From: Escherichia phage 241
Direction: 5' to 3' (one strand)
DNA length: 64,000 bases
Sequence record: OR924452
A program made the position numbers and the translations under genes. Shown in pieces: positions 433 to 62,540 of this stretch. The notes beneath the pieces were generated by a model that worked only from the letters and a program-made list of their open reading frames with translations, was not told where the DNA came from and made no database searches. Position 1 is the stretch's first letter, and the number at the start of each line of letters is the position of its first letter.

Positions 433-2913
433 ATGAATCCGCAATTTGCTCAACCGAAAGGTTCTACTTCAAAAGAAACGAACAAAGATAGCATCGCCCG
501 TAAATTTGGGTGCAAAAAGTCGGAAGTCGTTTATGCCAAAGCGGGACAGTCTTTGTCTGGTTATAAAGTGATCTACGATAAGGTGTCTCAACGTGCCTAC
601 GCTCTCCCTTCTAACATTGGTGCTGTAACGGTCACCAGTTTAGTTGACGGCATCCTCACGCACTCTGGAGGCACTGTAGATTTGGGTGCGCTGGCGGTGT
701 TGCGTGAGGAATACGTCATTCTGATAGAAAATTTCACTTCCGGATTTACGATTCGTGTCAAGAACGAAGTCGTGAGCGATGGAGTGAATTTATACCGCTG
801 GGGTGGTGGTTTACCAAAGACTGTCAATGCTGGTGAAGATCTAGACTCCACTGGAGGGATTAGCGTGGGGGCGTGGATTAGCGCGGGCGTTGCTTCATTG
901 AGGAACGATCTTGCTGCTAATGATGGGTTTAAATTTATTGGGCAATGTCCAGATATAGCAACATTAAGGACAATTGAACCTGGCGTCAATGGTCAAAGAA
1001 TTATATTACGGCAACATACGGCTGGAACTGGTCTTGGCGGCGGTTCATTTAGGGCTGTAGTTGATGGCACCGGATATGAAGACGATAACGGAGTGGTTAT
1101 TAAAACAACTGGCGGTGCCGCCTGGCTACGCCTCAACGCAGATAGAGTTAATCCGTTTATGTTTGGGGCAACAGGTGGTGTGGACGACACTGTGGCTGTT
1201 CAGGCCAGCGTAGATAGTGGTCGAGCCACCGAACTAACTGCGCCATTCAACGTCACTTCCATTAAGCTGAAGAAAAAATCTGCAAGTATCTACGGGTCAG
1301 GTATGCACATCTCAAGGCTAGTGCAAAAACCAGGGGTGGCTGGTGACTGTGTGGTTATTGAAGATACCTGCTCGCTTATTAAATTGGATAATTTCGGTAT
1401 TTACGGAACTGGTGCACAGCAAGATACTGCATTCACTGCGGGAACGCGTGGATTAGTTGTTCCAACCCCCACCGGACTTTCTACAAACTACCCATTTAAC
1501 ACATCAGCAGACCCACGAAGGGATTTGTGTATCAACAACGTGCATATTGCTGGGTTTGATGAGTATGGACTTAAAATCGAAAATGGAAACTTTTCAGTAT
1601 CAACGACAAACCTTCTTATTAACCACATTAATCAAGTTGGTGCGTATTGCGCAACAACAGACTGGACTTGGACAAATATCCAGATAAATACCTGTGGTAA
1701 GGAGTGTCTTGTCTTAGATGGCGCTGGCAACGCCCGTATTATTGGTGCTAAACTTATTTGGGCTAACTGGCAACCATATGCTGCTTCAGGTAGTTACCCT
1801 GGATTGAAGATAAACAATTGTCAAAACATTACTATGAGTGCTACAGAGGTTCAGGACTGCGGTTCTGATGGCATAATCTTTAAAGACAGTTATTCTATTT
1901 CAATTTCAGGACTAAACACGAACAGAAACAGCATAAACAGCAACTACTCATATAACAACTGCGTATTTGATAGTTGCGACGTTACAATTGATGGGTTCGT
2001 TGGTCTTAACTATTCTTCAAACTCAGGTTCGGGGATACCTTCCAGTGCCGCTAATTTTAGATTCCTGTCTTCAGATTGTACCGTAGTCGTAAACGGAAAT
2101 GTAGAGTCAGAGTATCTCGGTATCTTGTTCCGTGGTGATAACAATATTATTCAGCCAACGAATTCAGACCTTAAAATAAATGGATTGATTAATTACGATA
2201 AAACAAGCATTACATTTCAAAATGTAATGCCTTCATTCGATGGTGTTAGTACCACTCCTGTATTCGTTCCCGCCCCATCAATTATAGGCCAGGCAAACGG
2301 ACTTCGTTTGTCACAAGGAAATAAAGACAAAATCAGGTATACAACATCCAGAGTTCCAGCTGGTGGCGTGTCACTATCTGCAATTCTAATACCAACAATA
2401 ACTGGCGCTGAAACGTTTAATATTATTGTTCTGGGTACTGGATTTGGCTCTACCAACAATAGCCTCTACTTTCAGTTAAATGTCGACTCATCAGGAAATC
2501 AAAGCGTTGCATTACTTATCAGTGGCGATGGTCAAACACAAGTTCTTTCTGGGGTGATTCCGGATGAATTTAAGATACAAAGTGGAGTTCCGTACCATTT
2601 TGCATTGGGTGCTGCTCCTGGGAGATTCTGGTGGAGTATATTAAATATTCAAACAGGTTCACGTATAAGAAGGGCATTTAGACGTGATTACTTAAGCGCT
2701 CCATTTAACAGCTTATTTGGTAATGATGTTTCTATAAATTTCTTCTCAGGTGAAGGTTCATCAGATGAAGCATGCTCTGGGATTGGGGCAAAAGTTTATG
2801 CTGGAGCATTCAGTTCTGAATCTGATTATTGCGCAAGCAGATACTACAGTTTGTACAATCCTATAGACCCATCTAAAATGTTTAGCTATAGAACACTTGA
2901 TGGCTCCATATAA
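433..2913 (+). CDS. tailspike protein with pectate-lyase-like right-handed beta-helix (probable polysaccharide depolymerase)
   Basis: 826 aa; motif VNPFMFGATGGVDDTVAVQASVD typical of pectate-lyase-fold tailspikes; repetitive N/S/T/G-rich beta-helix-like segments; AGGAGA RBS before ATG. Confidence 0.7.
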   Translation: MNPQFAQPKGSTSKETNKDSIARKFGCKKSEVVYAKAGQSLSGYKVIYDKVSQRAYALPSNIGAVTVTSLVDGILTHSGGTVDLGALAVLREEYVILIENFTSGFTIRVKNEVVSDGVNLYRWGGGLPKTVNAGEDLDSTGGISVGAWISAGVASLRNDLAANDGFKFIGQCPDIATLRTIEPGVNGQRIILRQHTAGTGLGGGSFRAVVDGTGYEDDNGVVIKTTGGAAWLRLNADRVNPFMFGATGGVDDTVAVQASVDSGRATELTAPFNVTSIKLKKKSASIYGSGMHISRLVQKPGVAGDCVVIEDTCSLIKLDNFGIYGTGAQQDTAFTAGTRGLVVPTPTGLSTNYPFNTSADPRRDLCINNVHIAGFDEYGLKIENGNFSVSTTNLLINHINQVGAYCATTDWTWTNIQINTCGKECLVLDGAGNARIIGAKLIWANWQPYAASGSYPGLKINNCQNITMSATEVQDCGSDGIIFKDSYSISISGLNTNRNSINSNYSYNNCVFDSCDVTIDGFVGLNYSSNSGSGIPSSAANFRFLSSDCTVVVNGNVESEYLGILFRGDNNIIQPTNSDLKINGLINYDKTSITFQNVMPSFDGVSTTPVFVPAPSIIGQANGLRLSQGNKDKIRYTTSRVPAGGVSLSAILIPTITGAETFNIIVLGTGFGSTNNSLYFQLNVDSSGNQSVALLISGDGQTQVLSGVIPDEFKIQSGVPYHFALGAAPGRFWWSILNIQTGSRIRRAFRRDYLSAPFNSLFGNDVSINFFSGEGSSDEACSGIGAKVYAGAFSSESDYCASRYYSLYNPIDPSKMFSYRTLDGSI

Positions 2914-2974: not shown

Positions 2975-3005
2975 CTCTATAAATGGCACTCGATGGAGCA
3001 TCAAA

Positions 3006-6000
3006 ATGCAATCTACAAATCTAAACCGTCGCCCGTATTGGGACGACTGGAATCCTGGAAAACGGTTTTCACGGATTCTTTTTCGCCCGATGCCTATTAA
3101 AGTTCAGACTCGTGAACTAAACCAGATGCAGACTATTCTGCAAGATCAGATTGAAAAGCTGGGAAACCATTTGTTCAAAGATGGATCTATGGTTATCCCT
3201 GGTGGTCTGACGATTACCAACGCCGCTGTATCTATGAAATTCACTCTGGCTGGCGGTACTGAGTTTACTGATCTGGAAGGGATTACTGAACTTTATGTTC
3301 TGGGAAAAGACAATAATGCCAAAGCGCGTGTGCTATCTCTTGAACGTGATCTGTCTGCTCCGGATACGATGTTGGCCATCCTTGAAATGACAGAAGTGGG
3401 TAATGCAGATGGCTTCCACGTCAACGACAATCTGTATTTCCAAACCTATGACGTCAATGACAACTTCATTCGTATTGGTTATGGTATCGCAGCTGCGGTG
3501 ACTGGTTCTATCGTCGCTCGTATGACGAAGGGCGTTTACTTCATTCGTGGGATGTTCCTTGATGTTGATGACGCGACTCTCATCGTCGATAAAACTTCAA
3601 ACACTTCTTCCCATCGCGTCGGGTTTAAAGTCACTGAAACCATCGTGACTGAATCTGAAGACGAATCCCTTTATTCAAACGCTCAGGGAACGATTAACTC
3701 CAAAGCCCCAGGCGCTCATCGTCTTCGAATAGATCTGGTCTTATCTCGATTTGATTATGATGCTGTGGTTGAAGACTTTGTTGAACTGGCCAAAGTTCGT
3801 GATGGTAAAATCCAGTCTATGGTGACTCAGTCCACCTATAATATTCTGGAAGACACGTTGGCTCAACGGACGTATGAAACCAACGGCGATTACAACGTTT
3901 CAACGCATCAGATCGACATCCGCGAACACCTGAAAGTCAATAACAATGGTGGTGTATTCAATGCTGCTGATGGCGGCGACGAAAGTAAATTCGTGTCTGT
4001 AATGAAACCAGGTATTTCCTATGTTCGCGGTCGTCGTATCGAAAACGTCGGGGAAGAGTTGGTGATCGTTGACAAGGCACGGGATACCGATGTCCTGAAT
4101 AACACGCCTGTCGCAGTTGCTACAGGGAATTATCTGGTCACCAAGAACTCCAAAGGTGTTCCAGTAATATCTCGCACTGTGCGATACAAGTTATTGAACG
4201 CATCTGGCGCTGCTCAAGCCACGGCGTTGTGTATATCCGCTGAACGCAATTCAACTGAATTCCGTCTGTACATGCGTGATTTGGTTGTGACTGGGGACGC
4301 GTCCACTATCACCAAAGTGTCTTATGAAGAAAGTGGTATCACCATGTTCTCTGCTGAACTGGAATCCAACCAGTTTAACCAGAGTTCTATGGTAGACTTG
4401 ATCTTCTCTCTTCCGGTCTTCGGTGTTAAAACATTAGCGCCAACAGGTTCCGTGGATATCAACTACACAGTCCTCAGAACTTATAAGGTGACGCTAGACA
4501 GCAGCGGTTCTGGTTCTATTTCAGCTCCGCTGGGATATAGTTTCTCTCCTGAATTTTCGTTGTATTCTTCTGCGAAATCCGATGGTTCAGAAGCGCAATT
4601 TGATATCTCTGGCTCTTTGTCACTGACTGGTTCTCCGGTGGGTTCGGCTTTGCAGATTTCCCTGGGTAGCGGTAATGCTAACCAGTCAATCAATTTGCTG
4701 GCACTGATGATCCGCACTACGGCCACGATCAAAACGAAGACGATAACTGAAACCACAGAGTCTGTGACTTTTACTTCCCAAACCAGTAGACCTCTGGCAA
4801 ATCACGACGGCTGGAAATTGGTATCTGTCAAAAATGATACTGGCGCGGACGTGACTTCGAGCTTCACCCTCGACGGTGGCCAACGCGATGCGGGATATTA
4901 CAAGGCTAATCTGTTATCCACCGCTGGAGCCATTTCAGGGACGTATACGGTGGTGTATCAATACTTCGCGCATAGTTCGGGGGATTTCTTCTCAGCGGAT
5001 TCGTATACTTCAATGGATTACAAAGATATCCCGAATTATACATCCTCCACATCAGGGGCGGTGTATGGTTTGGCCGATAGCCTTGATTTCCGTCCGAAAA
5101 TTACCAACGGGACATCCGACACTGATATGGTTCGCCCGAATACGGCTGTCATCCTGGACACAGAGTATTATTTGCCTCGTATCGACGCGATTTATCTGGC
5201 AGATAATGGCGTGTTTGGTGTAGCCCGTGGCATCAGTTCCAACAACCTGGCGTCCCCAGCAATACCTGCAAACTCCATGCGTTTGTATGAACTGTTGATT
5301 CCCCCATACACGCCGAATATCGATGATATACAAATTCGCACCATCGATAACCGTCGTTATACGATGCGTGATATCGGTAAACTGGAAACGCGTATTTCCA
5401 ACGTTGAATACTACACCTCTCTGTCGCAGCTGGAATCTTCGGCGATGACACAACAGGTATTTGATCCAATCACGGGTAATCCGCGATTCAAAAACGGTAT
5501 CGCCGCCGATCCATTCAAAGACTTCCGTCTTATTGATGATCTGTCTGAAGATTGGATGGGATCTATCGATACGGAAAATGGACGTTTGCGTCCGTTTGTT
5601 CAACAGAACGCCGTTGACATGACTCCAGTAGGCTGGAACAAAGTGATGGATGGTATGGTGGTTTGTAACTACACGCCTGAAATCTCCGTGAACCAAGAAT
5701 ACGCGACGACGACGATCAACGTTAACCCGTATGCTGTATTCAACTGGGAAGGTTTCTTGAAGATTAACCCGACCACGGATTACTGGTTTGAAAACTACTA
5801 TGTCGCCCCGCGTGTTATCAATGAAACGATCAACACTCGTGGTACTGTACAAGAAGGTTCGGTGTACGGGACGTGGCGTACTGTTTCTGTTTCTGATCGT
5901 GTTTGGGAGCCGCATGGCGCTGGTGGTGTGTGGTGGGGATACCGCTATCGCACGACTGTTTCTGCCCGTGATGTCACCACATACACATACACGGACAAAA

Positions 6001-25509: not shown

Positions 25510-25540
25510 TTATAAATACCCCCAAAATTGGGGGTATTTT

Positions 25541-26269
25541 ATGAACGCACAAATCTACGATGTCCTTTCCTCTGGTAACGCATTTAGCAACCCGCTTCCG
25601 TCCCTCTCCGGTCCCTCACAGGATTTAATCACCAGTGGTAGTACCAATATACCATTGATAACTGCCAACGCGACTCCGGAAATGCAGTTGGCTATGTCAG
25701 CAGGTGGATTAACACCAGATAAACTTACAGCAGCCACAAACATGTATAGCTCTGCCAACACGGGGATAACGACACTGAACACATATGGCGACCAGAGCAT
25801 AAATGAAGCGTATTCAAGAATTGGGACTTCCGTTTCATATAAATCAGGTTTGAAAAGTATATCACGGGAACCAAACAATTGTGACCTGATCAACAAAGCA
25901 TTCGGTGTTGTTCAGGATCTAGGCCGCCAATGGTTAAACGCTATGGAAGGCGCTCTCCAGACTGTGACTAACAAGATATCGGAATTGTATGACATGATTA
26001 TGGAAGGTGCCTCAGAAGGTATGGCAAAACTACAGCAATTGGCTGCTGAAGTAACAGGACATATCAATGAGGCAATAACCGCCGTCAATGGAGTTATAAA
26101 CGATATCACCGATGGGATAGCTGCAGAACTTGCTCATATTGAAAGTATGATCAAAGAATGTCTAAACTTCTCTTTTGCGAATGTTCTTGGAGAATGGGCC
26201 AAAGATCTCTGTGCTGGAGGCGTTATTGATAAAATAGGGACTCCAGAATTAAAAGAGTCCCTGAAATAA
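25541..26269 (+). CDS. hypothetical protein (242 aa), possibly late/structural
   Basis: Preceded by TATAAATA (25511-25518) adjacent to a CCCCC-AAAATT-GGGGG hairpin. Confidence 0.5.
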   Translation: MNAQIYDVLSSGNAFSNPLPSLSGPSQDLITSGSTNIPLITANATPEMQLAMSAGGLTPDKLTAATNMYSSANTGITTLNTYGDQSINEAYSRIGTSVSYKSGLKSISREPNNCDLINKAFGVVQDLGRQWLNAMEGALQTVTNKISELYDMIMEGASEGMAKLQQLAAEVTGHINEAITAVNGVINDITDGIAAELAHIESMIKECLNFSFANVLGEWAKDLCAGGVIDKIGTPELKESLK

Positions 26270-26890
26270 TCAATGTCTAGCGGGGAGAACTCCCACTGGT
26301 TCGATACCTTCCATCACCAGGGAGTTCACCCCAACATCACTCATTCGAATCCATACTTTACCGCCTGGTCTTATTTCATAGATGTTCATTTCATTACCCA
26401 CAGCAGATCCATTAACGAAAACACCCTGAGTGGCAATTCGGATCGGAGATTTGGTGTTATTAACTATCTGAAATGATATTGCAACGTCTCTGGTGATTTC
26501 TACGTCCCTTGCTTGAGTATTCCTTCTAAGTTTGTCAAAGAAAGAAGGATTGAAAGTCGCTATGATGCTATTATTCTGAGAGTAATAAATACTTGCGGAT
26601 AGATATGGGATCTTTCCTTCGTCACCTTTCCTCAATAGGGGAATCGTGGTTTTCCAGTATGGTCTCAGTGACTGGTTGTTATCATCAAAACAACCAACAG
26701 CTTGAAGAGTCTGGAAGTTCTGAAAATCAGATACTACTTGATTCAGAATATTTTTATTGCATTTATCAATGTCGGCTGAGATGTTAACAGGTATGGTTCT
26801 GATTTCAGGATCCCAGAGGTCGGTTACAGAAATGACGGACGTGACAAAGATACGGCAACTTGTGAGTGCAAGCACCATTATCATCGTCAT
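26270..26890 (-). CDS. predicted lipoprotein (minus strand)
   Basis: Within ORF 26270-26968, internal Met gives MTMIMVLALTSC signal with lipobox LTSC. Confidence 0.5.
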   Translation of the reverse strand: MTMIMVLALTSCRIFVTSVISVTDLWDPEIRTIPVNISADIDKCNKNILNQVVSDFQNFQTLQAVGCFDDNNQSLRPYWKTTIPLLRKGDEGKIPYLSASIYYSQNNSIIATFNPSFFDKLRRNTQARDVEITRDVAISFQIVNNTKSPIRIATQGVFVNGSAVGNEMNIYEIRPGGKVWIRMSDVGVNSLVMEGIEPVGVLPARH

Positions 26891-26953
26891 GATCCATTTT
26901 CTGAATCCGCGTATCAGGAACACTAAAACGTTCTCCACAGCAAAGGTGCTAAC

Positions 26954-27451
26954 ATGACAGGTGTACAATTCAAAAACGAAAATCCTAATTTCGCGGCTTC
27001 CGATAAATGGCGCTTAACTATCGGAGACCTGATATTGCTTACTCGTTCAATACATGACTTCAGTATTCCTGGAGTGTATTCTGAAGGTATCGAGGGACCA
27101 TCCCCTGGCGATGTGCTCAACTCCATACCTTCAGAACGTCTCACGTATGACCCCATCGTATTTACGTTCGTTATCGATGAGAGTTGGTACAACTGGGAAC
27201 AGATTTACAATTGGATTGCGTCTAATGCTGGATCTGATTTAGCTGTCAGCCGCGACATCACCATCGACCTTCTTGATAACATGAATCGACCTGTTGGTCT
27301 ACAATTGTTGTTGGAAGAAGCCCGTCCCACAGCTTTGGATAACGTATTGGTGGATGTGGATGCTGCGGTTCCCCAACTGGTCACGACTGTCACGTTCAAA
27401 TATTTGAAACTGACTCCGACTCGCGTCACCCGCGAAATTGATAAACAATAA
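26954..27451 (+). CDS. hypothetical protein (165 aa), possible tail-tube-fold baseplate protein
   Basis: Weak similarity in residue pattern to tail-tube family proteins; upstream of uvsY. Confidence 0.3.
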   Translation: MTGVQFKNENPNFAASDKWRLTIGDLILLTRSIHDFSIPGVYSEGIEGPSPGDVLNSIPSERLTYDPIVFTFVIDESWYNWEQIYNWIASNAGSDLAVSRDITIDLLDNMNRPVGLQLLLEEARPTALDNVLVDVDAAVPQLVTTVTFKYLKLTPTRVTREIDKQ

Positions 27452-27489: not shown

Positions 27490-27945
27490 ATGAGCGAAAC
27501 AAAACTTGAAACGATGAAAACCGAAGATATAATGGCAGAATTGGAACCTCTTATTTCGGTAAATCCTGAAGACATGAACTTAGACCAAATGTCATTGAAA
27601 ATTGGTCGTTCGTGGATGACTGTGCAACGCCATTATATTCGTGAAGGAAGATATCTGGAGTATCTAACTGGCAAATTCCGCCAAATAGATCTCTATTTAC
27701 GCCGATTTTATGCAGGGGAATTGCCGCCCAACGTTTATGTTGAACGCCCATTAAAAGTTCGACCCCTGAAATCTGATATAGACGTATGGGTAAAAGCAGA
27801 TGATGATTATATCGAATTGTCTAGCATGCTTCAAGAGCAGAAAGCCAAAGTCAAGTTCATCGAAAGTTGCTTAGATCGTTTGAACAAACTCGGATATGAA
27901 GTGAAGAATGCTATTGATTGGCGAAAATATTTGGATGGGATGTAA
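27490..27945 (+). CDS. uvsY: recombination mediator UvsY-like
   Basis: C-terminal CLDRLNKLGYEVKNAIDWRKYLDG resembles T4 UvsY ALDAIKSRGFAIKHIQDMRAFEAG; adjacent to uvsW as in T4. Confidence 0.6.
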   Translation: MSETKLETMKTEDIMAELEPLISVNPEDMNLDQMSLKIGRSWMTVQRHYIREGRYLEYLTGKFRQIDLYLRRFYAGELPPNVYVERPLKVRPLKSDIDVWVKADDDYIELSSMLQEQKAKVKFIESCLDRLNKLGYEVKNAIDWRKYLDGM

Positions 27946-30226: not shown

Positions 30227-30571
30227 TCATTTGTCTTGGTTCACATAGGCGGGGGTCGCCTCGCCTTCTTTGTCAGAACCGAATAAACAACCCATCGTGC
30301 TGATGCATTGTTGTAGAACTTCTGGATCCAGAATCTGACACAACAGTTGTTCATTACATTCCAGCAATGGGACAACTTTCACTTCCCGCGCCTGTCCTTG
30401 TTGAATAATGCCGACATATAGACCTTTGGTGTCTGGCAGTAACGGGATCACCATCATTGGTGTCACAACAAACTTAGAAGTGCAATAGAGGCTGTGTAGG
30501 TAAACACCTTTCAATGCCGGACATGCTTCTTGTTCTTCCCCCACTGCATATAAACCCACGAATTGTTTCAT
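30227..30571 (-). CDS. hypothetical protein (114 aa, Cys-containing)
   Basis: Minus-strand ORF divergent from gene 45. Confidence 0.45.
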   Translation of the reverse strand: MKQFVGLYAVGEEQEACPALKGVYLHSLYCTSKFVVTPMMVIPLLPDTKGLYVGIIQQGQAREVKVVPLLECNEQLLCQILDPEVLQQCISTMGCLFGSDKEGEATPAYVNQDK

Positions 30572-44387: not shown

Positions 44388-45077
44388 ATGAAACGTTTAA
44401 TCATCGGGGTTGTGCTGGCTGGTCTGGCACTTCCTGCCACCGCCAAGCTGAACTCCACAGGTGAAAAACTGTGGTCTGATCTTTCCTACTGTGCTGGGTT
44501 CTCCCAGGCGGTCGCTATCGACAAGTCCGGTTCCATAGAGAATTTTGCTGAACTTTGGAACACGGGTAACGTCTCCACTGCTGTTGTTAATGCTGGGATT
44601 GAGTTCAACCGTTACAAACAGGGAGCCTACAACTTGAAAGGCTACCTGAATGACGATGAATTTAACCGAGGAGGCATGGAGGCTGGCGATCTCATCATGA
44701 CTGGCCGTATGGGTACACAAGGCCGTATGACTGTAAGGCAATGCCGTTCTCTCCCCTCTCCGGCATTACAGAAGGGTGTGCAAATCGGGCGTCGACATCT
44801 GGATCTGATTAATGATGGCAACCAATGCATCAAGGTGTTTGAATATAGTGCCGACCAAGAATCAGATCGACGTTTGAAAAAGGAATGGCGGACACGTGCC
44901 CTTGGATTGAGAGCATGGCTGGTGGAAAATGATCATTATTATGAAGACCGTGTTCAGAATGGTTTGAAAGATCTTTCCACTAATTTGTCTGTCAATCTTG
45001 ATGATCCCAGGCTTGCCCGTGAACTCAAGCAAACAAGAATTGACTGTGATAATATGATGAAGGAGAACGAAAGATGA
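44388..45077 (+). CDS. secreted/periplasmic protein (signal peptide)
   Basis: MKRLIIGVVLAGLALPATA signal peptide; AAGGAG RBS; ATG 44388 inside ORF 44271-45077. Confidence 0.5.
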   Translation: MKRLIIGVVLAGLALPATAKLNSTGEKLWSDLSYCAGFSQAVAIDKSGSIENFAELWNTGNVSTAVVNAGIEFNRYKQGAYNLKGYLNDDEFNRGGMEAGDLIMTGRMGTQGRMTVRQCRSLPSPALQKGVQIGRRHLDLINDGNQCIKVFEYSADQESDRRLKKEWRTRALGLRAWLVENDHYYEDRVQNGLKDLSTNLSVNLDDPRLARELKQTRIDCDNMMKENER

Positions 45078-45394
45078 GAAACATAATATTCTTGTTATTC
45101 TTTTCTATGTTGGCATCATTCCAAGTTGTGGCAACTCCGGCTAGCAAATTGAATATGTGTGCGGCGTGGTTGTCTACTTATCAACAATTTCACCCTGATG
45201 ATAAAGATACATCCATCCTTTTATCAGATTATGAAGGTGAGTTGAAACGCCTTGATCTCTACAGCGTGGATCAAATAGAGAATGCTTTGGATTTGCCAAT
45301 GATGGAGTCCGCTGCCGACAATAGCAAACAGACGATCAAAGATCTGACTATGTGTCGGGAAATAGCGACTAATTTCGTTGGAAATCAAAGATAA
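45074..45394 (+). CDS. small secreted protein (signal peptide)
   Basis: MRNIIFLLFFSMLASFQVVA signal peptide; overlaps previous gene by 4 nt. Confidence 0.5.
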   Translation: MRNIIFLLFFSMLASFQVVATPASKLNMCAAWLSTYQQFHPDDKDTSILLSDYEGELKRLDLYSVDQIENALDLPMMESAADNSKQTIKDLTMCREIATNFVGNQR

Positions 45395-47579: not shown

Positions 47580-47785
47580 TCGGGTTAATCCGTTATCTGT
47601 TCATATTCGTAATTTCAACATTCATTTTATTTTTCTTTTTCAAATACTTGAAAGAGACTAAAATCTACCGAAGTAAACGTTGGCGCAAACGGGTGAGGGT
47701 AACTTTCCTGCTGCTGATTTCTTCGGTTACAATAACCGCACTCACATTGGGTGCATATATCTACATTTTTGAAGGGATACATTGA
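47567..47785 (+). CDS. small membrane protein (two predicted TM helices)
   Basis: Hydrophobic segments IGLIRYLFIFVISTFILFFFF and VTFLLLISSVTITALTLGAYIYIF. Confidence 0.4.
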   Translation: MGNMIGLIRYLFIFVISTFILFFFFKYLKETKIYRSKRWRKRVRVTFLLLISSVTITALTLGAYIYIFEGIH

Positions 47786-48576
47786 TGTTCAAGAAATTGG
47801 TGTTCGGTGCAATTATGGTTCTGGCTGCAAGTCTACTTTCTGGTTGTGGTGGCGTTATCGATGAAGGTAATGTCGGCGTTCGCACCCAATGGGGTGAAGT
47901 AGACATGAACCCTGTAACAGCGGGGATCTACACCAGCTTTGTTTCAAGCGTGGATGTTTACACGACCAAAGAAGCCGTTGTGAGTCTGACTAAAATGACG
48001 CCAAAGGCCAAAGACAACCTGACTCTGGAAGACTTGGATGTGGATGTTTATTACACACCCAATGTCGCAAAGGTTCCGTGGTTCCATACCAAATTTGCTG
48101 GCCAGAGCGCTGAACTCGATGATGGCACGATAGCGGTGGGTTTCAATCTAGTTAAAACTGCTGCAGCATCTTCTTCGATGGACGCCGTTTCTTCTCTTGA
48201 TTCTATGACAATCCACACCCAACGTGCTGAATTAGAGAAGATGATTAAAGACCGCACTCAGCAACAATTAGAGACTGCAGCGCCTGGCATGTTCACAATC
48301 ACACGCGTGTTGGTCAAAAAGGCGCTGACGGATCCTTCTATTGAGCAGTCTATCCGTGATAATGTTATGGCGGACAAACGATTGGATACGGCAAGAAAGA
48401 ACGTTGAAATTCGCGAGCAAGAAGCCCAAGCGAACCAGAAACTGACCACTTCGCTGACGCCTGAATATCTTCAACATGAATATAACATGGTATTACAATC
48501 ATGTGCCAACAGTGGAAAATGTACTCTGATCGTTGACGGATCCGGCTCAGGTAAAATGCTGAACGTCGGCAAATAA
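47782..48576 (+). CDS. SPFH/band-7-like lipoprotein
   Basis: Signal with lipobox LLSGC; beta-rich N-region followed by helical Ala/Gln/Glu-rich region, reminiscent of SPFH domains. Confidence 0.45.
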   Translation: MMFKKLVFGAIMVLAASLLSGCGGVIDEGNVGVRTQWGEVDMNPVTAGIYTSFVSSVDVYTTKEAVVSLTKMTPKAKDNLTLEDLDVDVYYTPNVAKVPWFHTKFAGQSAELDDGTIAVGFNLVKTAAASSSMDAVSSLDSMTIHTQRAELEKMIKDRTQQQLETAAPGMFTITRVLVKKALTDPSIEQSIRDNVMADKRLDTARKNVEIREQEAQANQKLTTSLTPEYLQHEYNMVLQSCANSGKCTLIVDGSGSGKMLNVGK

Positions 48577-49063: not shown

Positions 49064-50785
49064 GTGACAGCATTTAATCAATACCGAAAGGCAATTGACG
49101 CCATAGGCCGTAAGGTTCCTATAGAAGAAATACAAAGCCTTGCCAAAAACGAATTTCCATATGACAAGGCGAACCAAGGCCAGATGGAATGTATCGTCGA
49201 AGCCGTTGATGCCTTGGTCAACAAAAAGGTCAAACACGTGATCATTGAAGCCCCAACTGGCGTGGGGAAATCTTTGATTGGGACAACAATTCATAAAGTG
49301 ATTCGCCATTTGGTTTTACAGGCCGATCCTTATGGGCAATTCCGCACGTCTATCAGTACGCCCACCAAAGGTCTACAAGATCAGTATGCTGCTGAAAAGG
49401 CGGTGGCGATAGACATCCTGAAAGGCAAGAAGAACTATCGTTGCCACGTACACCCAGATGTGTATTACAACGCCGTGCAATGCCGTATAGCATGCCGCGA
49501 CGGGCATTGTAGCAAACGCCGTTGTCCTTATGTACAGGCGCGCAATTTATGGACTGATATTTCGTCATTGCGTTGCACTAATGCAGCTATGATGATTGAG
49601 ATGTGCACCACCATCTGTATGAAGCCTGAAAACCGTTCCGATATGCTGATCTTAGACGAGTGTCATAAGATGCCCTCTACGCTCCTAGAGCACACGATAA
49701 TGGAATACAATACAAAGGCTGTGGATGGGCTGCGAACTATCCCCGAAGGGAAGGAGATAGTCTCTATCATTGCCGATATCGTAGAACGCACCAAGGACTA
49801 TGTCTTGGGCAAGTTGTATTCCTTGTCCGGTGAAATGCATTCGATGTTTGAAGACCTCCATCTTAAAGTGGAGTCTTTGTTGGAAGTTCTTGAAGAATTG
49901 GTTGAAGATGACCGCCTGAGTGAAAGCCAGGTGATGAAACTCGCCGACATTATCGATGTACTACACAATCTGAGTGATTATTGTGGTATTATGTCTCAGA
50001 CAAAGGCCAGCACCTTTATCGTACAGGAAAAGGGAGATGACTTTATTCGGTTTAAACCCGTCATGCCTTCTGATGTAAGTGAATTTGGATTGTTCAGGAA
50101 AGCCGATTACCATGTTCATATGTCGGCAACAATCTGCGGAATCGATTCATATGCCCGTTCCTTGGGTATCCGCCAGGGGGATTATCATTCAATACAGATT
50201 GGAAATCCAATCCCAATTGAAAATCGGAAAGTCAACTATATGCCCATCGTTAAGATGACCAACAACATGGGCGATTATGAAATGAAAAGGCTGACGGAAT
50301 ACATTGATGAAATAATCGCATTCCATCCAGGGCAATCTGGCATCATACATACAGTGAGCTATGATCGCGCATTAGCAATACAAAAATTCAGCAAATACCA
50401 GAACTTTATCCATGTGCCACGCACCCGAAAGGCGTTGATGGATATTATGGAAAATGCCTTCAGGACAAAAACACCTTGTGTTATTGCCAGTCCGGCCATG
50501 GAAGAAGGATATGACTTCAAAGGTGATTACAGCCGATTCCAAATACTGATCAAAGTTCCTTACGATTATTTGGGTGATCCATTGATCGCACATATTAATT
50601 CAGTGGATCCGTCTGCGTACTTCCGCAACGCAGTATTGCGCATTGTTCAGATGTGCGGACGTTCGGTCAGGGGTGTGGATGACTGGGCTGCAACATACAT
50701 AATCGATTCTTCCTTTGAATCTCTTATGATGCGCAACCCAGAGTTCTTCCCAACCTGGTTCACCGATGCAGTATTTGAAGTTTAA
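49064..50785 (+). CDS. DinG/XPD-like superfamily 2 helicase with Cys-rich (putative Fe-S) insertion
   Basis: Walker A IIEAPTGVGKS, DEAH-type box LILDECHKM, Cys cluster CHVHPDVYYNAVQCRIACRDGHCSKRRCPY between them; GTG start with AAAGGAGG RBS. Confidence 0.65.
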   Translation: MTAFNQYRKAIDAIGRKVPIEEIQSLAKNEFPYDKANQGQMECIVEAVDALVNKKVKHVIIEAPTGVGKSLIGTTIHKVIRHLVLQADPYGQFRTSISTPTKGLQDQYAAEKAVAIDILKGKKNYRCHVHPDVYYNAVQCRIACRDGHCSKRRCPYVQARNLWTDISSLRCTNAAMMIEMCTTICMKPENRSDMLILDECHKMPSTLLEHTIMEYNTKAVDGLRTIPEGKEIVSIIADIVERTKDYVLGKLYSLSGEMHSMFEDLHLKVESLLEVLEELVEDDRLSESQVMKLADIIDVLHNLSDYCGIMSQTKASTFIVQEKGDDFIRFKPVMPSDVSEFGLFRKADYHVHMSATICGIDSYARSLGIRQGDYHSIQIGNPIPIENRKVNYMPIVKMTNNMGDYEMKRLTEYIDEIIAFHPGQSGIIHTVSYDRALAIQKFSKYQNFIHVPRTRKALMDIMENAFRTKTPCVIASPAMEEGYDFKGDYSRFQILIKVPYDYLGDPLIAHINSVDPSAYFRNAVLRIVQMCGRSVRGVDDWAATYIIDSSFESLMMRNPEFFPTWFTDAVFEV

Positions 50786-51549
50786 TAACCTGCAATAAAC
50801 GATAAATGGCACTTGATATTTGGTTCAAGTGTCGTTATCGTGATGATCATATTATCCACATCTTGGCTGAAAGATATATTTGCTATTGGTTTAGTCTGAA
50901 CGTGGTTGTACAGGCTGTATATCAAATCTTCACCACGGTATCCGACTTTACCATCAGTATCCTGCCAATGGCCTAACGTGGATTCATGAGCATGTACTCG
51001 GAATTCTATCATATGGAACAATGCTTTTGGGATTGTTTTCAGTATGCTGGTTCCGACAACAGGGATATCAATAGCAGAGTCGTTGGAATTGCCCTCATAT
51101 ACTGACGCCCAACCAAATGTTGGATCTCCCCCCGCTACTGGAGTTCTCTTCCAGTATTGGAATTCCGGATTTCCAGCAGCATTCTTTTGTAGAAGGATAA
51201 CTTCACCGCCTTCAAAATTAGAAGTGTCTATATCATCACGTGCTAATAAATCAGCTGGAGAACCAATAAATTTCCAGGTTTCGCGATCTAAAATAGACTT
51301 ATAATAATCGGTGAATACGTTACTGTCGTCAGCTGCGTTGATTGCGTCTTTAAGACCTTCACCTGTGACCATCTCATTGAGTTTTAGCCACATGTTTTTG
51401 ACAGCTGACGCAGCTGCGACTTGACCTTCAGTCCCACCCGCCGTGTAGTCATAAACGATGTCCAGCTTTTGTATGGAATCATTTATAGACAAGAGCAAAC
51501 GCTCAATTTCTGGGGCGGTCAGACTGAAACGATATGCGCGTTCTGACAT
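50782..51549 (-). CDS. hypothetical protein (255 aa, minus strand)
   Basis: Opposite-strand ORF between helicase and RNase H genes. Confidence 0.45.
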   Translation of the reverse strand: MSERAYRFSLTAPEIERLLLSINDSIQKLDIVYDYTAGGTEGQVAAASAVKNMWLKLNEMVTGEGLKDAINAADDSNVFTDYYKSILDRETWKFIGSPADLLARDDIDTSNFEGGEVILLQKNAAGNPEFQYWKRTPVAGGDPTFGWASVYEGNSNDSAIDIPVVGTSILKTIPKALFHMIEFRVHAHESTLGHWQDTDGKVGYRGEDLIYSLYNHVQTKPIANISFSQDVDNMIITITTLEPNIKCHLSFIAGY

Positions 51550-59147: not shown

Positions 59148-61532
59148 ATGGCCATCCAATCTTTCTTAAATTTCCTTGACGAGTCCAAACAATTGGACGA
59201 AGCGTTTAACTCCGCTCCATACGAATTGACTTTCGGCAAGAAAAATGCTGGTGACATTTTCTTCACGTTCGTAGACGAAGATGAAAAAGAATTCCGCATC
59301 CAATTTTATACCCCGCAGGGGCTGGGCAAGAACGTTCGTCAGGTCTTCATAGGCCAGAAACGTGGTTCAACCTATCCAGACGCAATCGGTCGTTTCAAAA
59401 ACCCAATGCGTGTCATCGCATCCATGATCGAAGCGACTAAACAATTCATGGCGACACCGCTGGGTAAAACCATTGATGGGTTTGCGATTAACTTCTCCAA
59501 GAAAGCTCTAGAACGCGGAACGACGTTACTCCCAAAAATTATTCGTCAATCTGGTCTGAAGCAGAAACTCAACGTCATGGATCTGACTTATACCCCAATC
59601 CCTGACCGTGCCTTCGTATGGGTTGTACGCAAAGGCAAGGATCCTGCTCAGGTATTCGATGGTCCGAAAATGAAAGGCGTGACTTGGGACGACCCAGACA
59701 AAGTCGGTGACGTTCCTGACCAGGCTGCTCGTGACGCCGCACTACAAGGTGACATGGATGATTTGAGCCAATCCATAAATGCCGATTCTCGCTGGATTCT
59801 GACCAAAGCTGATCATACTCAGCCTATGCTGGTCTGGTCTGGTAAAGAACGTGGGCGGACTATTACCGCCAATATCGCACCTCACGCGAATGAACCTGGT
59901 GTGTATGCTGGTAGTATCATGAACGAGAAACGGATCCGCGCTCAATCCCCAGACGCTATTGTACGCCAACTGGGATTACCGCAGATCCCTGTGAATATTC
60001 TGAATGATTTCACCAAGCAGTCGTCCATCTTCTGGAAAGAGATGACGGGGGATTCTGGAAAAATAGACATGCAGACTTTGCCAAAAACAGGATCTGTGGA
60101 TGACTTACGAAATCAGGGTTATATTGCTCGCCTTCTGGGGATTGTAGACACATATGCTCCACAACAGGTCGGTATGTATGCAGGTGAGAAACTAACACGA
60201 ATCGGCGCGGGCAAATATCGTACTTCGGGTGGTCTGGACATTCAGGTTTATTTCTGGGGAATTGTCAACGGAAAACTTTCTGTAGAAGTGGTTTCTGATT
60301 TATCTGGCAATGAACAGCTGATGCTGGAAGGCGACGTGAAAAACGCTGCTTTTGAAATCGTCAGTGCGATATCCCGTGCTGCTGATTCTCAGTTCAAAGG
60401 TGAAGTGGAATGTCGTGTTGTTCCAATCAACGGTGCCCCATACCCGATTCAAAAGGTTTCCCGTTCCCAGGGTTATTCTTATGTCGATTGTATTTCGTTT
60501 ACCTTGAAGATCGCCGATGCATTGTTAAATCGTTTTACTCTGGGTAAGGCAGTCAAACTCGATCTGATAAAAGAGTTCCCTCGAACGACGTTTATTGTTC
60601 GTTATGACTGGCGCAGCAAAGATACTCTGATGGTCCAGTCTTCTGATGGGAAGACTATCTTCGGCGAAATCAACACAAATTCCAGTGATAACGCTGTCAT
60701 CACTGCGAACCTGAAAGCCCCAAGCAATGCGAAGATATTTGGTGAAACCGTTCATGGGTTCTCTGTGGCTTGGGACTTCCAGTTCCCTGCGGGTAGCCAG
60801 CTGCAAGCCGCACGGTTCGTTACGAACGTGACTTACGACTTCGATCGTAATAAGGCCAACATCACGACCATGCTGACCGAAAATGGCCGAAATGTAGTCA
60901 ACAGCAGCGGATATGACATTCAGTTATCTGTCAAGTCTGTGCAAGATGCGTTGAATGAGACTTCACAACGCCTGAAAGACGCTGCGGCTCAATTGAGCCA
61001 TCTCAGTTCATCAAACTATAACCCGAACAAGCTGTTTCTGAATGATATCACCGTCAGTAAGTTTGGTGCAATTATGTTCCAAGACAAAGATCTGGCGCAG
61101 TCTAGAAACCGCACTGCAGTCATTGATGCCCTGGCTCGCGCCAAAGACCAAGCTGCTGGGGGCAAGAACAGCAGCGATCTGGCCACATATTCCGATTCCA
61201 TCCGCAACAGTGCTCCCAACGGACGAGATCTTGATTGGCAGGTATACGTGACCAATAGCGGCGCAGTTCTTAACGTCGATTGGAGTATCACCTTCCGTCG
61301 CAACACAACCGAAGGTGCATATCGTGAGTTCAAAGATCAGATCAACCGTGCTAACCAGTATTTACAAACGGTATACAACGATGCGAAATCGAAGGGATAT
61401 AACCCGACAGAGCCAAACCTGATGACTCTGGCTCGTGCCCAGCAGTCCGACGAATGGGCGGCAAGTAACGGGGAAAGCGCATACAGTGAGTATGAGCAGT
61501 CTCTGGGCGGCAATCTTCAGATTAAGATCTGA
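59148..61532 (+). CDS. large hypothetical protein (794 aa); candidate virion-packaged internal protein
   Basis: AGGAG RBS; amphipathic acidic N-terminus MAIQSFLNFLDESKQLDE; shares SPDAIVRQLGLPQIPVNILNDF module with downstream gene. Confidence 0.5.
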   Translation: MAIQSFLNFLDESKQLDEAFNSAPYELTFGKKNAGDIFFTFVDEDEKEFRIQFYTPQGLGKNVRQVFIGQKRGSTYPDAIGRFKNPMRVIASMIEATKQFMATPLGKTIDGFAINFSKKALERGTTLLPKIIRQSGLKQKLNVMDLTYTPIPDRAFVWVVRKGKDPAQVFDGPKMKGVTWDDPDKVGDVPDQAARDAALQGDMDDLSQSINADSRWILTKADHTQPMLVWSGKERGRTITANIAPHANEPGVYAGSIMNEKRIRAQSPDAIVRQLGLPQIPVNILNDFTKQSSIFWKEMTGDSGKIDMQTLPKTGSVDDLRNQGYIARLLGIVDTYAPQQVGMYAGEKLTRIGAGKYRTSGGLDIQVYFWGIVNGKLSVEVVSDLSGNEQLMLEGDVKNAAFEIVSAISRAADSQFKGEVECRVVPINGAPYPIQKVSRSQGYSYVDCISFTLKIADALLNRFTLGKAVKLDLIKEFPRTTFIVRYDWRSKDTLMVQSSDGKTIFGEINTNSSDNAVITANLKAPSNAKIFGETVHGFSVAWDFQFPAGSQLQAARFVTNVTYDFDRNKANITTMLTENGRNVVNSSGYDIQLSVKSVQDALNETSQRLKDAAAQLSHLSSSNYNPNKLFLNDITVSKFGAIMFQDKDLAQSRNRTAVIDALARAKDQAAGGKNSSDLATYSDSIRNSAPNGRDLDWQVYVTNSGAVLNVDWSITFRRNTTEGAYREFKDQINRANQYLQTVYNDAKSKGYNPTEPNLMTLARAQQSDEWAASNGESAYSEYEQSLGGNLQIKI

Positions 61533-61540
61533 TCATCAAG

Positions 61541-61552
61541 CCCCTTCGGGGG
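61541..61552 (+). terminator. short hairpin
   Basis: CCCC-TTCG-GGGG immediately before the late-promoter-like motif. Confidence 0.35.
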
Positions 61553-61560
61553 CTAAATAC
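61553..61560 (+). promoter_or_regulatory. late-promoter-like motif CTAAATAC
   Basis: About 20 nt upstream of ATG 61582. Confidence 0.45.
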
Positions 61561-61581
61561 ATCAAAATCCTTAGGAGATCC

Positions 61582-62130
61582 ATGATGAAACCGTTTATCG
61601 AATATTTTAAAGAACAAGCCCAGCAGCCGCAAACTCATGGCGGTATACAAGGCAAAAGTGTAACCATCACTAAACAAGCCGATGGAACACAATGGTGCTC
61701 CGGCGCTACCGTGACCCAGATCACTCCTGACAATCAGGCCGATGTCTATAATCTGGAATTGACTAATGGCAACACCATCAAAGTGAAGCTAACTCCAGAC
61801 CAGACCCACGGCATTACCCAAGGCCAAGAAGTTGTTGCCGTCCATGATGGTTTTGAATTTTTCTTCGGCAAGTCAGCTGACAAAGGTCAGGTTACTGAAG
61901 CGGAAGGCTGGCGTTTCGTCGGTGACCGTGGCGCTCATATTCTGATGTATGACGCAAAAGTTGGCGGTGCCTCCACTATCCTTCGCAGTCCAACAGATCG
62001 AACCAAATTTGTTGGTGGTCTCATCAACGGTAGAAAAATTTTGGGTAATTCCCCAGAAGAACTGGCGGCAAAATTAGGTCTTCCAAAAATTCCTGATAAT
62101 TTATTAAAATCGTTTTTTGGTAAAAAGTGA
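61582..62130 (+). CDS. hypothetical protein (182 aa) paralogous over a C-terminal module to the 794-aa protein
   Basis: ATG 61582 with AGGAGA RBS preferred over non-ATG start 61435; C-terminal SPEELAAKLGLPKIPDNLLKSFF. Confidence 0.5.
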   Translation: MMKPFIEYFKEQAQQPQTHGGIQGKSVTITKQADGTQWCSGATVTQITPDNQADVYNLELTNGNTIKVKLTPDQTHGITQGQEVVAVHDGFEFFFGKSADKGQVTEAEGWRFVGDRGAHILMYDAKVGGASTILRSPTDRTKFVGGLINGRKILGNSPEELAAKLGLPKIPDNLLKSFFGKK

Positions 62131-62148
62131 TTATAAAATACAATCCCC

Positions 62149-62156
62149 CTAAATAC
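62149..62156 (+). promoter_or_regulatory. late-promoter-like motif CTAAATAC inside hairpin
   Basis: CCCCCT-AAATACA-GGGGG hairpin with motif in the loop, 30 nt upstream of ATG 62187. Confidence 0.4.
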
Positions 62157-62186
62157 AGGGGGATTTTCTTTTTAGGGGTAAATATC

Positions 62187-62540
62187 ATGGTCAATGCGAG
62201 TATATTCATCAACCGTGGACTGCTTGCTATAGCCCACTCCCATGCCCTCCACTTCGTTACAACGTCCTATGCCAAGCACAAGGCACTCGGGGAGTTCTAC
62301 GGGGAACTGGAGGACTTGCTGGATACCTTCACAGAGGCATATATCGGCGCGGGTGGTGTATATGTCCCAGGGTTTGAGAATATTAAACTGTACAACCCAG
62401 ATCCTATATCGTATGTCAACAGTGTTGTTATCGACGTAAACGGAATTTATGGTCAATGCGACAGCCATCTTCAAAATACGCTTGATGAAATCAAAACTTT
62501 GTGCTATCAAACGATTTACAAACTGAAGCAATTGTCCTAA
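62187..62540 (+). CDS. hypothetical protein (118 aa)
   Basis: ATG 62187 downstream of motif. Confidence 0.45.
   Translation: MVNASIFINRGLLAIAHSHALHFVTTSYAKHKALGEFYGELEDLLDTFTEAYIGAGGVYVPGFENIKLYNPDPISYVNSVVIDVNGIYGQCDSHLQNTLDEIKTLCYQTIYKLKQLS

Follow-up and report, generated by a model that had tools for sequence, protein, structure and literature searches.

A conserved inverted gene of Kuttervirus encodes a DUF7424 lipoprotein with a possible role in superinfection exclusion

A 64,000-nucleotide (nt) stretch of Escherichia phage 241 (accession no. OR924452), which is referred to here in its whole length as the window, carries a minus-strand gene at 26923..26270 that encodes a protein of the DUF7424 family. 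The conservation data strongly support that this is a genuine and old core gene of Ackermannviridae that is under purifying selection. The product is, with equally strong support from its sequence features, predicted to be a bacterial lipoprotein that is exported by Sec, processed by Lgt and LspA, and lipidated on Cys23. A superinfection-exclusion or progeny-protection role of this envelope lipoprotein is the best-supported mechanism, but it is proposed here only tentatively and by analogy. As the gene and the lipoprotein prediction are already in GenBank and Pfam, the finding as such is an ordinary one. When 2 kb surrounding the gene were used as a query, they showed 99.7% identity to Salmonella phage vB_SalM_SJ3 and matched 224 phage records, mostly Kuttervirus (Ackermannviridae). 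Judged by this similarity the window is Kuttervirus DNA, which bears out an earlier sequence-only reading in which the lipoprotein had been called phage-encoded.

The minus-strand frame was open from 26968 to 26270, whereas all five other frames were interrupted by stops there. The complete coding sequence (CDS) of the DUF7424 lipoprotein precursor comprises 217 amino acids (aa) at 26270..26923, with a GTG start at 26923..26921 and a TGA stop at 26272..26270. A Shine-Dalgarno sequence, GGAG, was read from the sequence at 26933..26936 (minus strand), 9 nt upstream of the GTG. The open reading frame (ORF) reported in the sequence-only reading is real, and its peptide MTMIMVLALTSC was found at 26890..26855 (minus strand) with the Cys codon at 26857..26855, whereas the start had to be moved from ATG 26890 to GTG 26923. 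The GTG is most likely the translation start, since GenBank records place the start at this same codon, since residues encoded between the GTG and the ATG (FLIRGFRKWI) are kept as protein in other genera (RGFRKW compared to RGIRRW and RGISR), and since the basic n-region, which is required for a lipoprotein signal, is present only in the longer form. The ATG at 26890, which leaves out this n-region, was rejected on these grounds and because of the GGAG. A GGAG followed by a GTG at a spacing of 6–9 nt recurs in ECML-4, 0507-KN2-1, LIMEstone1, and 3M, and in phiEa2809 a GGAG is located 8 nt ahead of a GTG. Some database records were found to be incomplete at this gene. In Serratia phage 3M (MH929319), 3M_075c is an annotation error that represents a 309-nt 3′ fragment of a 222-aa ORF (2989..3654). 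In phiEa2809 (NC_027340), no CDS is called for the lipoprotein gene (about 1483..2151) and gp3 is truncated, and MW388005 (SPHG3) contains no annotated feature under the lipoprotein-gene match.

Translated from the GTG, the precursor begins with a full lipoprotein signal, MFLIRGFRKWIMTMIMVLALTS, followed by Cys. In a pattern scan, the signal peptide of 22 aa (26858..26923, minus strand) showed a basic n-region (R5, R8, and K9) and an uncharged hydrophobic h-region (WIMTMIMVLAL). The lipobox L-T-S-C is located at residues 20–23 (26855..26866, minus strand) and agrees with the pattern [LVI][ASTVI][GAS]C, for which the Cys was also required to be conserved in homologues. Cys23 was invariant in an alignment of 27 sequences reaching 22% identity, in which the equivalent boxes were LTSC, LVSC, LNSC, LASC, LSGC, IGGC, LISC, and ISSC. 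Two other cysteines, Cys55 (codon 26759..26761) and Cys78 (codon 26690..26692; both minus strand), were invariant in both alignments examined, in the 27-sequence alignment from Salmonella to Vibrio phages, and Cys78 was at least 90% conserved across 138 remote relatives. This pair fits a putative disulfide in an oxidising, non-cytoplasmic compartment. The full signal, the invariant lipobox Cys, and the conserved second Cys pair together support the lipoprotein claim of the sequence-only reading well. A strict six-frame scan of the 64 kb for an n-region, an h-region, and a lipobox returned two ORFs only, 26923..26270 (minus strand) and 47785..48576 (plus strand), and the pattern is therefore not regarded as chance or background. 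The second of these encodes a 263-aa lipoprotein of the SPFH/band-7 type (MFKKLVFGAIMVLAASLLSGC) that matched phrog_200, ‘lipoprotein’ (1e-58). According to the Lol sorting rules, a residue other than Asp at position +2 leads to outer membrane delivery in enterobacteria. As the +2 residue is Arg, the lipoprotein should be located in the outer membrane of the enterobacterial host.

The mature lipoprotein (26273..26857, minus strand; 195 aa, 21.9 kDa, pI 7.9) consists of the DUF7424 domain and is predicted to be beta-rich. AlphaFold2 gave a confident, mainly beta model (mean pLDDT 81.2, pTM 0.77) with a low-confidence N-terminal helix at residues 4–20, and the folded domain begins at residue 25, just past the predicted lipidated Cys. 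The N-terminal stretch was the sole hydrophobic stretch of at least 19 aa, with no second hydrophobic segment in the protein. The mature part contained 5.1% Pro, and the last 25 aa had a mean hydropathy of 0.26. A PDB sequence search with the lipoprotein returned only noise (E about 0.5), no close solved fold and no recognisable enzymatic motif or ligand-binding fold were found, and DUF7424 proteins were the only significant viral matches in a BFVD search.

The protein matched Pfam PF24199 (DUF7424) with an E-value of 1.4e-60 (204.8 bits compared to a gathering cutoff of 27; profile positions 2–195 of 196) and phrog_3832 (4e-113; function unknown), and a 100% identical protein exists in public databases. 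The ratio of nonsynonymous to synonymous substitutions (dN/dS) was 0.039 compared to ECML-4 (90% amino-acid identity, dS 1.28), and the same comparison gave 0.023 for gp3, 0.030 for uvsY, and 0.042 for the DUF7217 gene. Using tblastn, the lipoprotein was found in 348 phage records and the neighbouring gp3 in 367. The 348 records cover phages of Salmonella, Klebsiella, Escherichia, Dickeya, Serratia, Shigella, Erwinia, Enterobacter, Aeromonas, and Vibrio. The counts for the two genes were identical in nine host genera and differed only in Vibrio (73 vs. 64), where the phages are most divergent and tblastn is near its limit. The place of the gene, its inverted orientation, and its divergence from gp3-uvsY-exonuclease-uvsW were the same in every genus inspected (Kuttervirus, Taipeivirus, Limestonevirus, Nezavisimistyvirus, Miltonvirus, and Tedavirus) as well as in two Vibrio phage types. 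The G+C content was 0.40–0.41 compared to 0.41–0.45 in the flanking regions, and AT skew alone flipped at the gene, as expected for the opposite coding strand.

Presence in essentially all Ackermannviridae genomes searched, fixed position and orientation, and matching G+C content show the gene to be a core gene and not a moron in this phage. The description of its orientation as moron-like was thus not upheld: its presence is not patchy, its base composition is not atypical, and its dN/dS is core-like.

Remote relatives of the lipoprotein were found outside these phages. A profile search that exhaustively covered 1.84 billion cluster representatives (E ≤ 0.001) detected 242 remote lipoprotein relatives, nearly all of 190–250 aa and matching end to end. 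Every remote relative tested matched PF24199, and the strict lipobox pattern was passed by 124 of the 138 examined, the rest showing near-lipoboxes at the same position. A Haemophilus member directly matched lipoproteins of Ackermannviridae-like Vibrio phages (E 4e-10), and tblastn of remote members against cultured phages detected only Ackermannviridae-like Vibrio and Serratia phages.

The gene contexts of these relatives were found to be of several kinds. P2/HP1-like prophages of Pasteurellaceae contained, with the immunity region on one side and the gpD/gpU tail genes on the other, a co-oriented block of a CI-type repressor (HTH_3 and Peptidase_S24), sometimes a WYL/BRCT protein, DUF7424, and an Excalibur-domain protein. 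DUF7424 also directly follows, in the same orientation, an HTH_3 repressor in a marine phage contig from TARA and a repressor with helix-turn-helix (HTH) and S24 domains in a Halomonas prophage. Paracandidimonas carries a lambdoid prophage in which it was located downstream of a 129-aa ORF that is divergent from a cro-like gene and presumed to hold the repressor position. Two insertion sites were seen in E217/Pam3-like myovirus prophages, one behind the tape-measure gene and the other between Baseplate_J and the wedge/tail-fibre genes. Two copies were present in islands with restriction-modification, Fic, Schlafen-like, or type IV secretion system (T4SS) coupling genes. The genes rexAB, Ltp, and Cor are protective genes in post-repressor or tail-cluster slots that are expressed from prophages. 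Remote DUF7424 homologues beside prophage repressors and in tail modules really do behave as morons, and their slots, being typical of prophage-expressed protective genes, would provide the main, indirect support for an exclusion-type role. The island copies and the parallel to the gene layout of T5 llp also speak for such a role.

In GenBank records of the region, the major head protein is followed by several small ORFs, a SLOG/“GTP-binding” protein, and, on the plus strand, a DUF7217 “putative structural protein”. Next come the 654-nt opposite-strand lipoprotein gene, labelled “hypothetical protein”, “putative lipoprotein”, or “conserved hypothetical lipoprotein”, a gp3-like tail completion/sheath stabiliser gene (plus strand), uvsY, an exonuclease gene, and uvsW. 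The convergent neighbour, the DUF7217 virion protein gene (25541..26269, plus strand), matched PF23854 at 2e-102. The divergent neighbour, the gp3-like gene (26954..27451, plus strand), was identified by phrog_45 and GenBank annotations. The proposed tail-to-tail arrangement between two plus-strand genes was confirmed on the DUF7217 side, where the two stop codons directly adjoin each other (26269/26270, 0 nt apart); on the gp3-like side the genes are instead head-to-head, with 30 nt between the start codons. Only two other sizeable minus-strand genes were found in the window, 30227..30571 (small clamp-loader subunit) and 50782..51549 (a 255-aa protein, phrog_3833, function unknown), and each sits singly among plus-strand genes like the lipoprotein gene. 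The record OR844942.1, “Enterococcus phage Efm 3-10”, showed 99.3% identity to the Kuttervirus region over 2 kb, and its naming as an Enterococcus faecium phage is probably due to mislabelling or contamination.

The motif CTAAATAY was present in 11 copies in the window (2967, 9482, 13732, 18513, 19731, 28688, 41672, 57253, 57840, 61553, and 62149), all on the plus strand and several 20–35 nt before ORF starts. The exact T4-type TATAAATA was found in two copies only (25300 and 25511), both on the plus strand. The late promoters of the phage appear to be CTAAATAY or TATAAATA, with the group core (C/A)TAAATA(C/T). Immediately ahead of the lipoprotein gene, neither motif was found. The 30 nt to the divergent start and the 0 nt to the convergent stop leave no intergenic room for a promoter or terminator. 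Transcription of the lipoprotein gene would therefore have to start inside the gp3 gene, and the mRNAs of the lipoprotein gene and its neighbours would overlap in antisense. A speculative late-type promoter core, GTAAATAC, is located inside the gp3-like ORF at 27158..27165 (minus strand), 235 nt upstream of the lipoprotein gene, and resembles the CTAAATAY and TATAAATA motifs of the phage. It is kept in four out of five enterobacterial genera through the choice of Val GTA and Phe TTT codons, whereas other Val codons in gp3 vary freely. Two Vibrio relatives contained CTAAATAC or CTAAATAT 40–44 nt upstream of the lipoprotein ATG. Taken as promoters, these upstream motifs hint at late transcription of the lipoprotein gene.

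Comparison across relatives revealed no conserved sigma-70 promoter ahead of the gene. The best minus-strand candidate, about 900 nt upstream (TTGAAG-17-TATAAT, 27834..27806, minus strand), was absent from ECML-4 and all other relatives and is probably due to chance, and TTGAAT-16-TAGCAC beside the start has a poor −10 and is explained by conserved FKNEN codons of gp3. On the plus strand, AATAAATAC is located inside the lipoprotein ORF at 26584..26592, about 360 nt upstream of the gp3 ATG, where it overlaps conserved S-I-Y-Y-S codons of the lipoprotein, and it is found at the equivalent place in LIMEstone1 and 3M. This motif may be a late promoter for gp3 that is embedded antisense in the lipoprotein gene. 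In phiA8-29, CTAAATAC is instead found in the intergenic region, 31 nt before gp3. Just before the DUF7217 ATG (25511..25540, plus strand), TATAAATA is followed by a perfect hairpin (CCCCC-AAAATT-GGGGG) and TATTTT, and the LIMEstone1 record annotates the equivalent element as a late promoter and terminator. On the minus strand, this element could terminate lipoprotein transcripts after they have crossed the DUF7217 gene in antisense. A literature search found no Kuttervirus transcriptome, and a 2024 review of Ackermannviridae contained no discussion of promoters, core genes, or membrane proteins.

In an exclusion or protection role, the lipoprotein would act at the cell envelope during infection, and its prophage relatives would do so at that of the lysogen. 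There it would hinder a post-adsorption step of incoming phages, e.g., tail-tip penetration or DNA passage through the periplasm, and so work like Llp, Cor, Ltp, or Spackle while being unrelated to any of them. Kuttervirus-type phages adsorb to O-antigen or capsule polysaccharide, and receptor masking in the strict sense, one of the functions named in the sequence-only reading, is therefore unlikely.

Several observations weigh against an exclusion role. With polysaccharides as primary receptors, receptor plugging in the style of Llp or Cor is not directly transferable to these phages. No sequence or fold similarity to a known exclusion protein or defence family was found in PHROGs, Pfam, NCBIfam, PADLOC, or structure searches. 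The only PHROGs matches were phrog_3832 and phrog_37762, both of unknown function, and the only Pfam match was DUF7424 (E ≤ 0.01 in both). NCBIfam gave no matches, and PADLOC (E 0.1) gave none for the lipoprotein or for four remote relatives. No mention of DUF7424 was found in the literature. Exclusion genes are usually accessory and variable, and the universality and structural-gene-like constraint of this gene hint at a function that is needed in every infection. The conserved promoter-like elements are of the late type only, whereas classical exclusion genes of lytic phages are early, as are T5 llp and T4 imm and sp. Furthermore, DUF7424 genes without mobile-element context were found in bacterial chromosomes. 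They are next to tctC in Photorhabdus and next to fba in Xenorhabdus, and each of these genera has copies in at least 10 species. Other copies were found near folD/arsRB in Proteus mirabilis, after the nuo operon in Leptospira, and as tandem paralogues between ilvA and ilvY/ilvC in a metagenome contig (ERZ9515176, 6227..7753). The tandem pair at the ilv locus and the chromosomal copies in Photorhabdus and Xenorhabdus show that the family is not restricted to mobile elements.

A bolder version of the exclusion role would make DUF7424 a new, widespread, and structurally unprecedented family of envelope lipoproteins that block the genome entry of contractile-tailed phages in the periplasm, as a prophage-expressed moron in temperate phages and islands and as a fixed core gene in the virulent Ackermannviridae. 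This version is doubtful, and is offered as a conjecture.

A rather unlikely alternative is that the lipoprotein has some other envelope function. It could remodel or block a host envelope machine (e.g., polysaccharide export), stabilise the outer membrane during infection, or protect against tailocins or other contractile injectors, and DUF7424 would then be a general bacterial lipoprotein family borrowed by phages. The many stand-alone chromosomal members (Photorhabdus, Xenorhabdus, Proteus, Leptospira, and the tandem ilv pair) are in line with this, as are the missing similarity to any defence or exclusion family and the strong purifying selection, in which no trace of an arms race was seen. 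Wherever tail genes could be identified in a phage context, the phage was also contractile-tailed (Ackermannviridae, P2-like, and E217-like). However, repeated placement after repressors and in tail modules is a signature of prophage-expressed protective genes, and the protein showed no recognisable enzymatic motif or ligand-binding fold. This alternative is also vague and overlaps with the exclusion role.

An accessory role in lysis or envelope disruption, in which the protein would be a late outer-membrane lipoprotein that substitutes for or partners an o-spanin at the end of infection, is improbable. A core gene under strong constraint is expected for a function in every cycle, and the CTAAATAY motifs at −40 and −44 in the Vibrio relatives, together with the conserved GTAAATAC at about −240 in the enterobacterial ones, are in agreement with late expression. 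In addition, the six-frame scan revealed no o-spanin-like lipoprotein in the 64-kb window, although the scan spanned 64 of about 158 kb and an o-spanin may lie elsewhere in the genome. The ORF called “Rz-like spanin” in phage Maynard (window 45074..45394, plus strand) encodes 106 aa with a signal-peptide-like N-terminus and no lipobox, and the preceding ORF (44388..45077, plus strand) encodes 229 aa with an N-terminal hydrophobic segment and matched phrog_4260 (function unknown). The spanin assignment in Kutterviruses looks weak. On the other hand, the globular, beta-rich mature part of 195 aa with 5% Pro is unlike the short, Pro-rich o-spanins, and the protein has no C-terminal transmembrane domain and is thus not a u-spanin. 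No i-spanin-like or lysis gene adjoins the gene, the spanin-labelled ORF being about 18 kb away, and the slots of the prophage homologues belong to the immunity region or the tail cluster and not to a lysis cassette. No spanin family was matched in Pfam, PHROGs, NCBIfam, or PADLOC.

It is far less probable that the lipoprotein is a virion or tail-assembly component, even though the products of both flanking genes are found in the virion and two homologues are located inside tail/baseplate clusters, co-oriented with structural genes. Tails are assembled in the cytoplasm, which is not where an exported protein with a lipid anchor is located, and the protein is unreported in two virion proteomes in which both neighbours were found. 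The list of 39 virion proteins of LIMEstone1 includes ORF127 (gp3) and ORF129 (DUF7217), while ORF128 is absent (PMC3296691); the only remark on ORF128 in the LIMEstone1 record is “putative signal peptide present”. In CsCl-purified Sajous1 virions, gp166 (DUF7217) and gp168 (the gp3-like protein) were detected with eight spectra each, and gp167, the lipoprotein homologue by GenBank numbering, is not in the main text of that paper (PMC10892097). Published proteomics thus support that the lipoprotein is not built into virions. The Sajous1 “tail completion protein gp214”, or the gp214-217 “ferrojan-horse” ferritin operon, was considered as the lipoprotein locus and rejected, as the gp3-like gene is gp168. 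By GenBank numbering, gp214-217 of Sajous1 (MW021757) maps to about 59148..62540 of the window (plus strand), where a 795-aa protein and three small ORFs are encoded, and gp214 was among the most abundant Sajous1 virion proteins with 196 spectra (PMC10892097). Finally, the reading that the ORF is no gene and arose by chance opposite a late transcript, for which only the absence of a convincing promoter directly upstream and of 3′ room for a terminator would speak, is effectively refuted by the conservation data (Pfam E-value of 1.4e-60, 348 syntenic homologues, dN/dS of 0.039, and invariant Cys residues), by the confident AlphaFold2 fold, and by stops in the other five frames.

Kutterviruses are used in biocontrol of Salmonella and E. 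coli O157 and in phage cocktails. If the exclusion role is true, a universal exclusion factor would affect interference among cocktail members and would point to a conserved, targetable entry step of Ackermannviridae, for which the post-adsorption stage is poorly known. A DUF family whose hundreds of diverse members are spread over phages, prophages, and bacterial chromosomes would also gain a function, and a large class with a new fold would join the short list of phage exclusion lipoproteins. The value of the present analysis is that of a lead from gene context, in which the repressor-adjacent homologues make the lipoprotein a reasonable candidate for experimental test.

Compared to known systems, the lipoprotein is similar to T5 Llp, annotated in NC_005859 as ‘Cor superinfection exclusion protein’, in being a lipoprotein of a virulent phage with a classical lipobox that is not a virion protein. 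In T5, too, the lipoprotein gene (llp) and a late tail gene (oad/pb5) are transcribed away from each other, with a short intergenic region between them. However, mature Llp has only 61 aa compared to 195 aa, and T5 Llp is expressed early. Llp blocks a protein receptor, FhuA, and its gene is next to that of the cognate receptor-binding protein, whereas the DUF7424 gene is flanked by the DUF7217 gene and the gene for the gp3-like tail completion protein, with no tailspike gene, and the receptors are polysaccharides. As a statement of homology, the earlier label “Llp/Cor-like” does not hold: only the signal peptide aligned to T5 Llp (hhalign, 18 columns, probability 26%), and no Pfam or PHROG match to an exclusion family was found.

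The late-made outer-membrane lipoproteins of phages of Gram-negative hosts, i.e., the o-spanin Rz1 and the u-spanin gp11 of T1, share the lipoprotein signal with the DUF7424 protein. Their differences are that o-spanins are short and Pro-rich, with genes embedded in or adjacent to the i-spanin gene, which applies neither way to the DUF7424 gene, and that the C-terminal transmembrane domain of u-spanins is missing from the DUF7424 protein. TraT of the F plasmid and Bor of lambda are also outer-membrane lipoproteins of mobile elements that are expressed in the carrier cell. TraT is similar in size and mediates surface exclusion, and one DUF7424 member was found in an island with a T4SS coupling protein, but relatedness is not supported, with no Pfam match besides DUF7424 at E ≤ 0.01 and hence none to a TraT or Bor model, should Pfam contain one.

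Cor (phi80/N15/HK022/T1) is a small phage lipoprotein whose gene, a moron, is located among or beside the tail genes and is expressed from the prophage. It is an outer-membrane lipoprotein that blocks FhuA and is much smaller than the DUF7424 lipoprotein, to which it shows no Pfam or PHROG similarity, and it is accessory whereas DUF7424 is universal in Ackermannviridae. The DUF7424 members in E217/Pam3-like prophages hold slots comparable to those of Cor. Spackle (Sp) and Imm are envelope exclusion proteins of T4, a virulent, contractile-tailed phage that has replication and structural modules in common with Ackermannviridae, and the target of Sp, in the periplasm, is the tail-tip lysozyme of the incoming phage. 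These proteins differ in being small, in not being lipoproteins, and in being encoded by early genes, and no similarity to them was found. Ltp of the Streptococcus thermophilus phage TP-J34 is a lipoprotein encoded in the lysogeny module beside the repressor that blocks DNA injection and not adsorption. It differs by its Gram-positive host and its helical, unrelated fold, with no sequence similarity detected, and the Kuttervirus copy belongs to a virulent phage without a lysogeny module. The location of Ltp is nevertheless matched by DUF7424 in four prophage lineages, in which the gene was found directly after the repressor or, in Paracandidimonas, after the ORF in the presumed repressor position.

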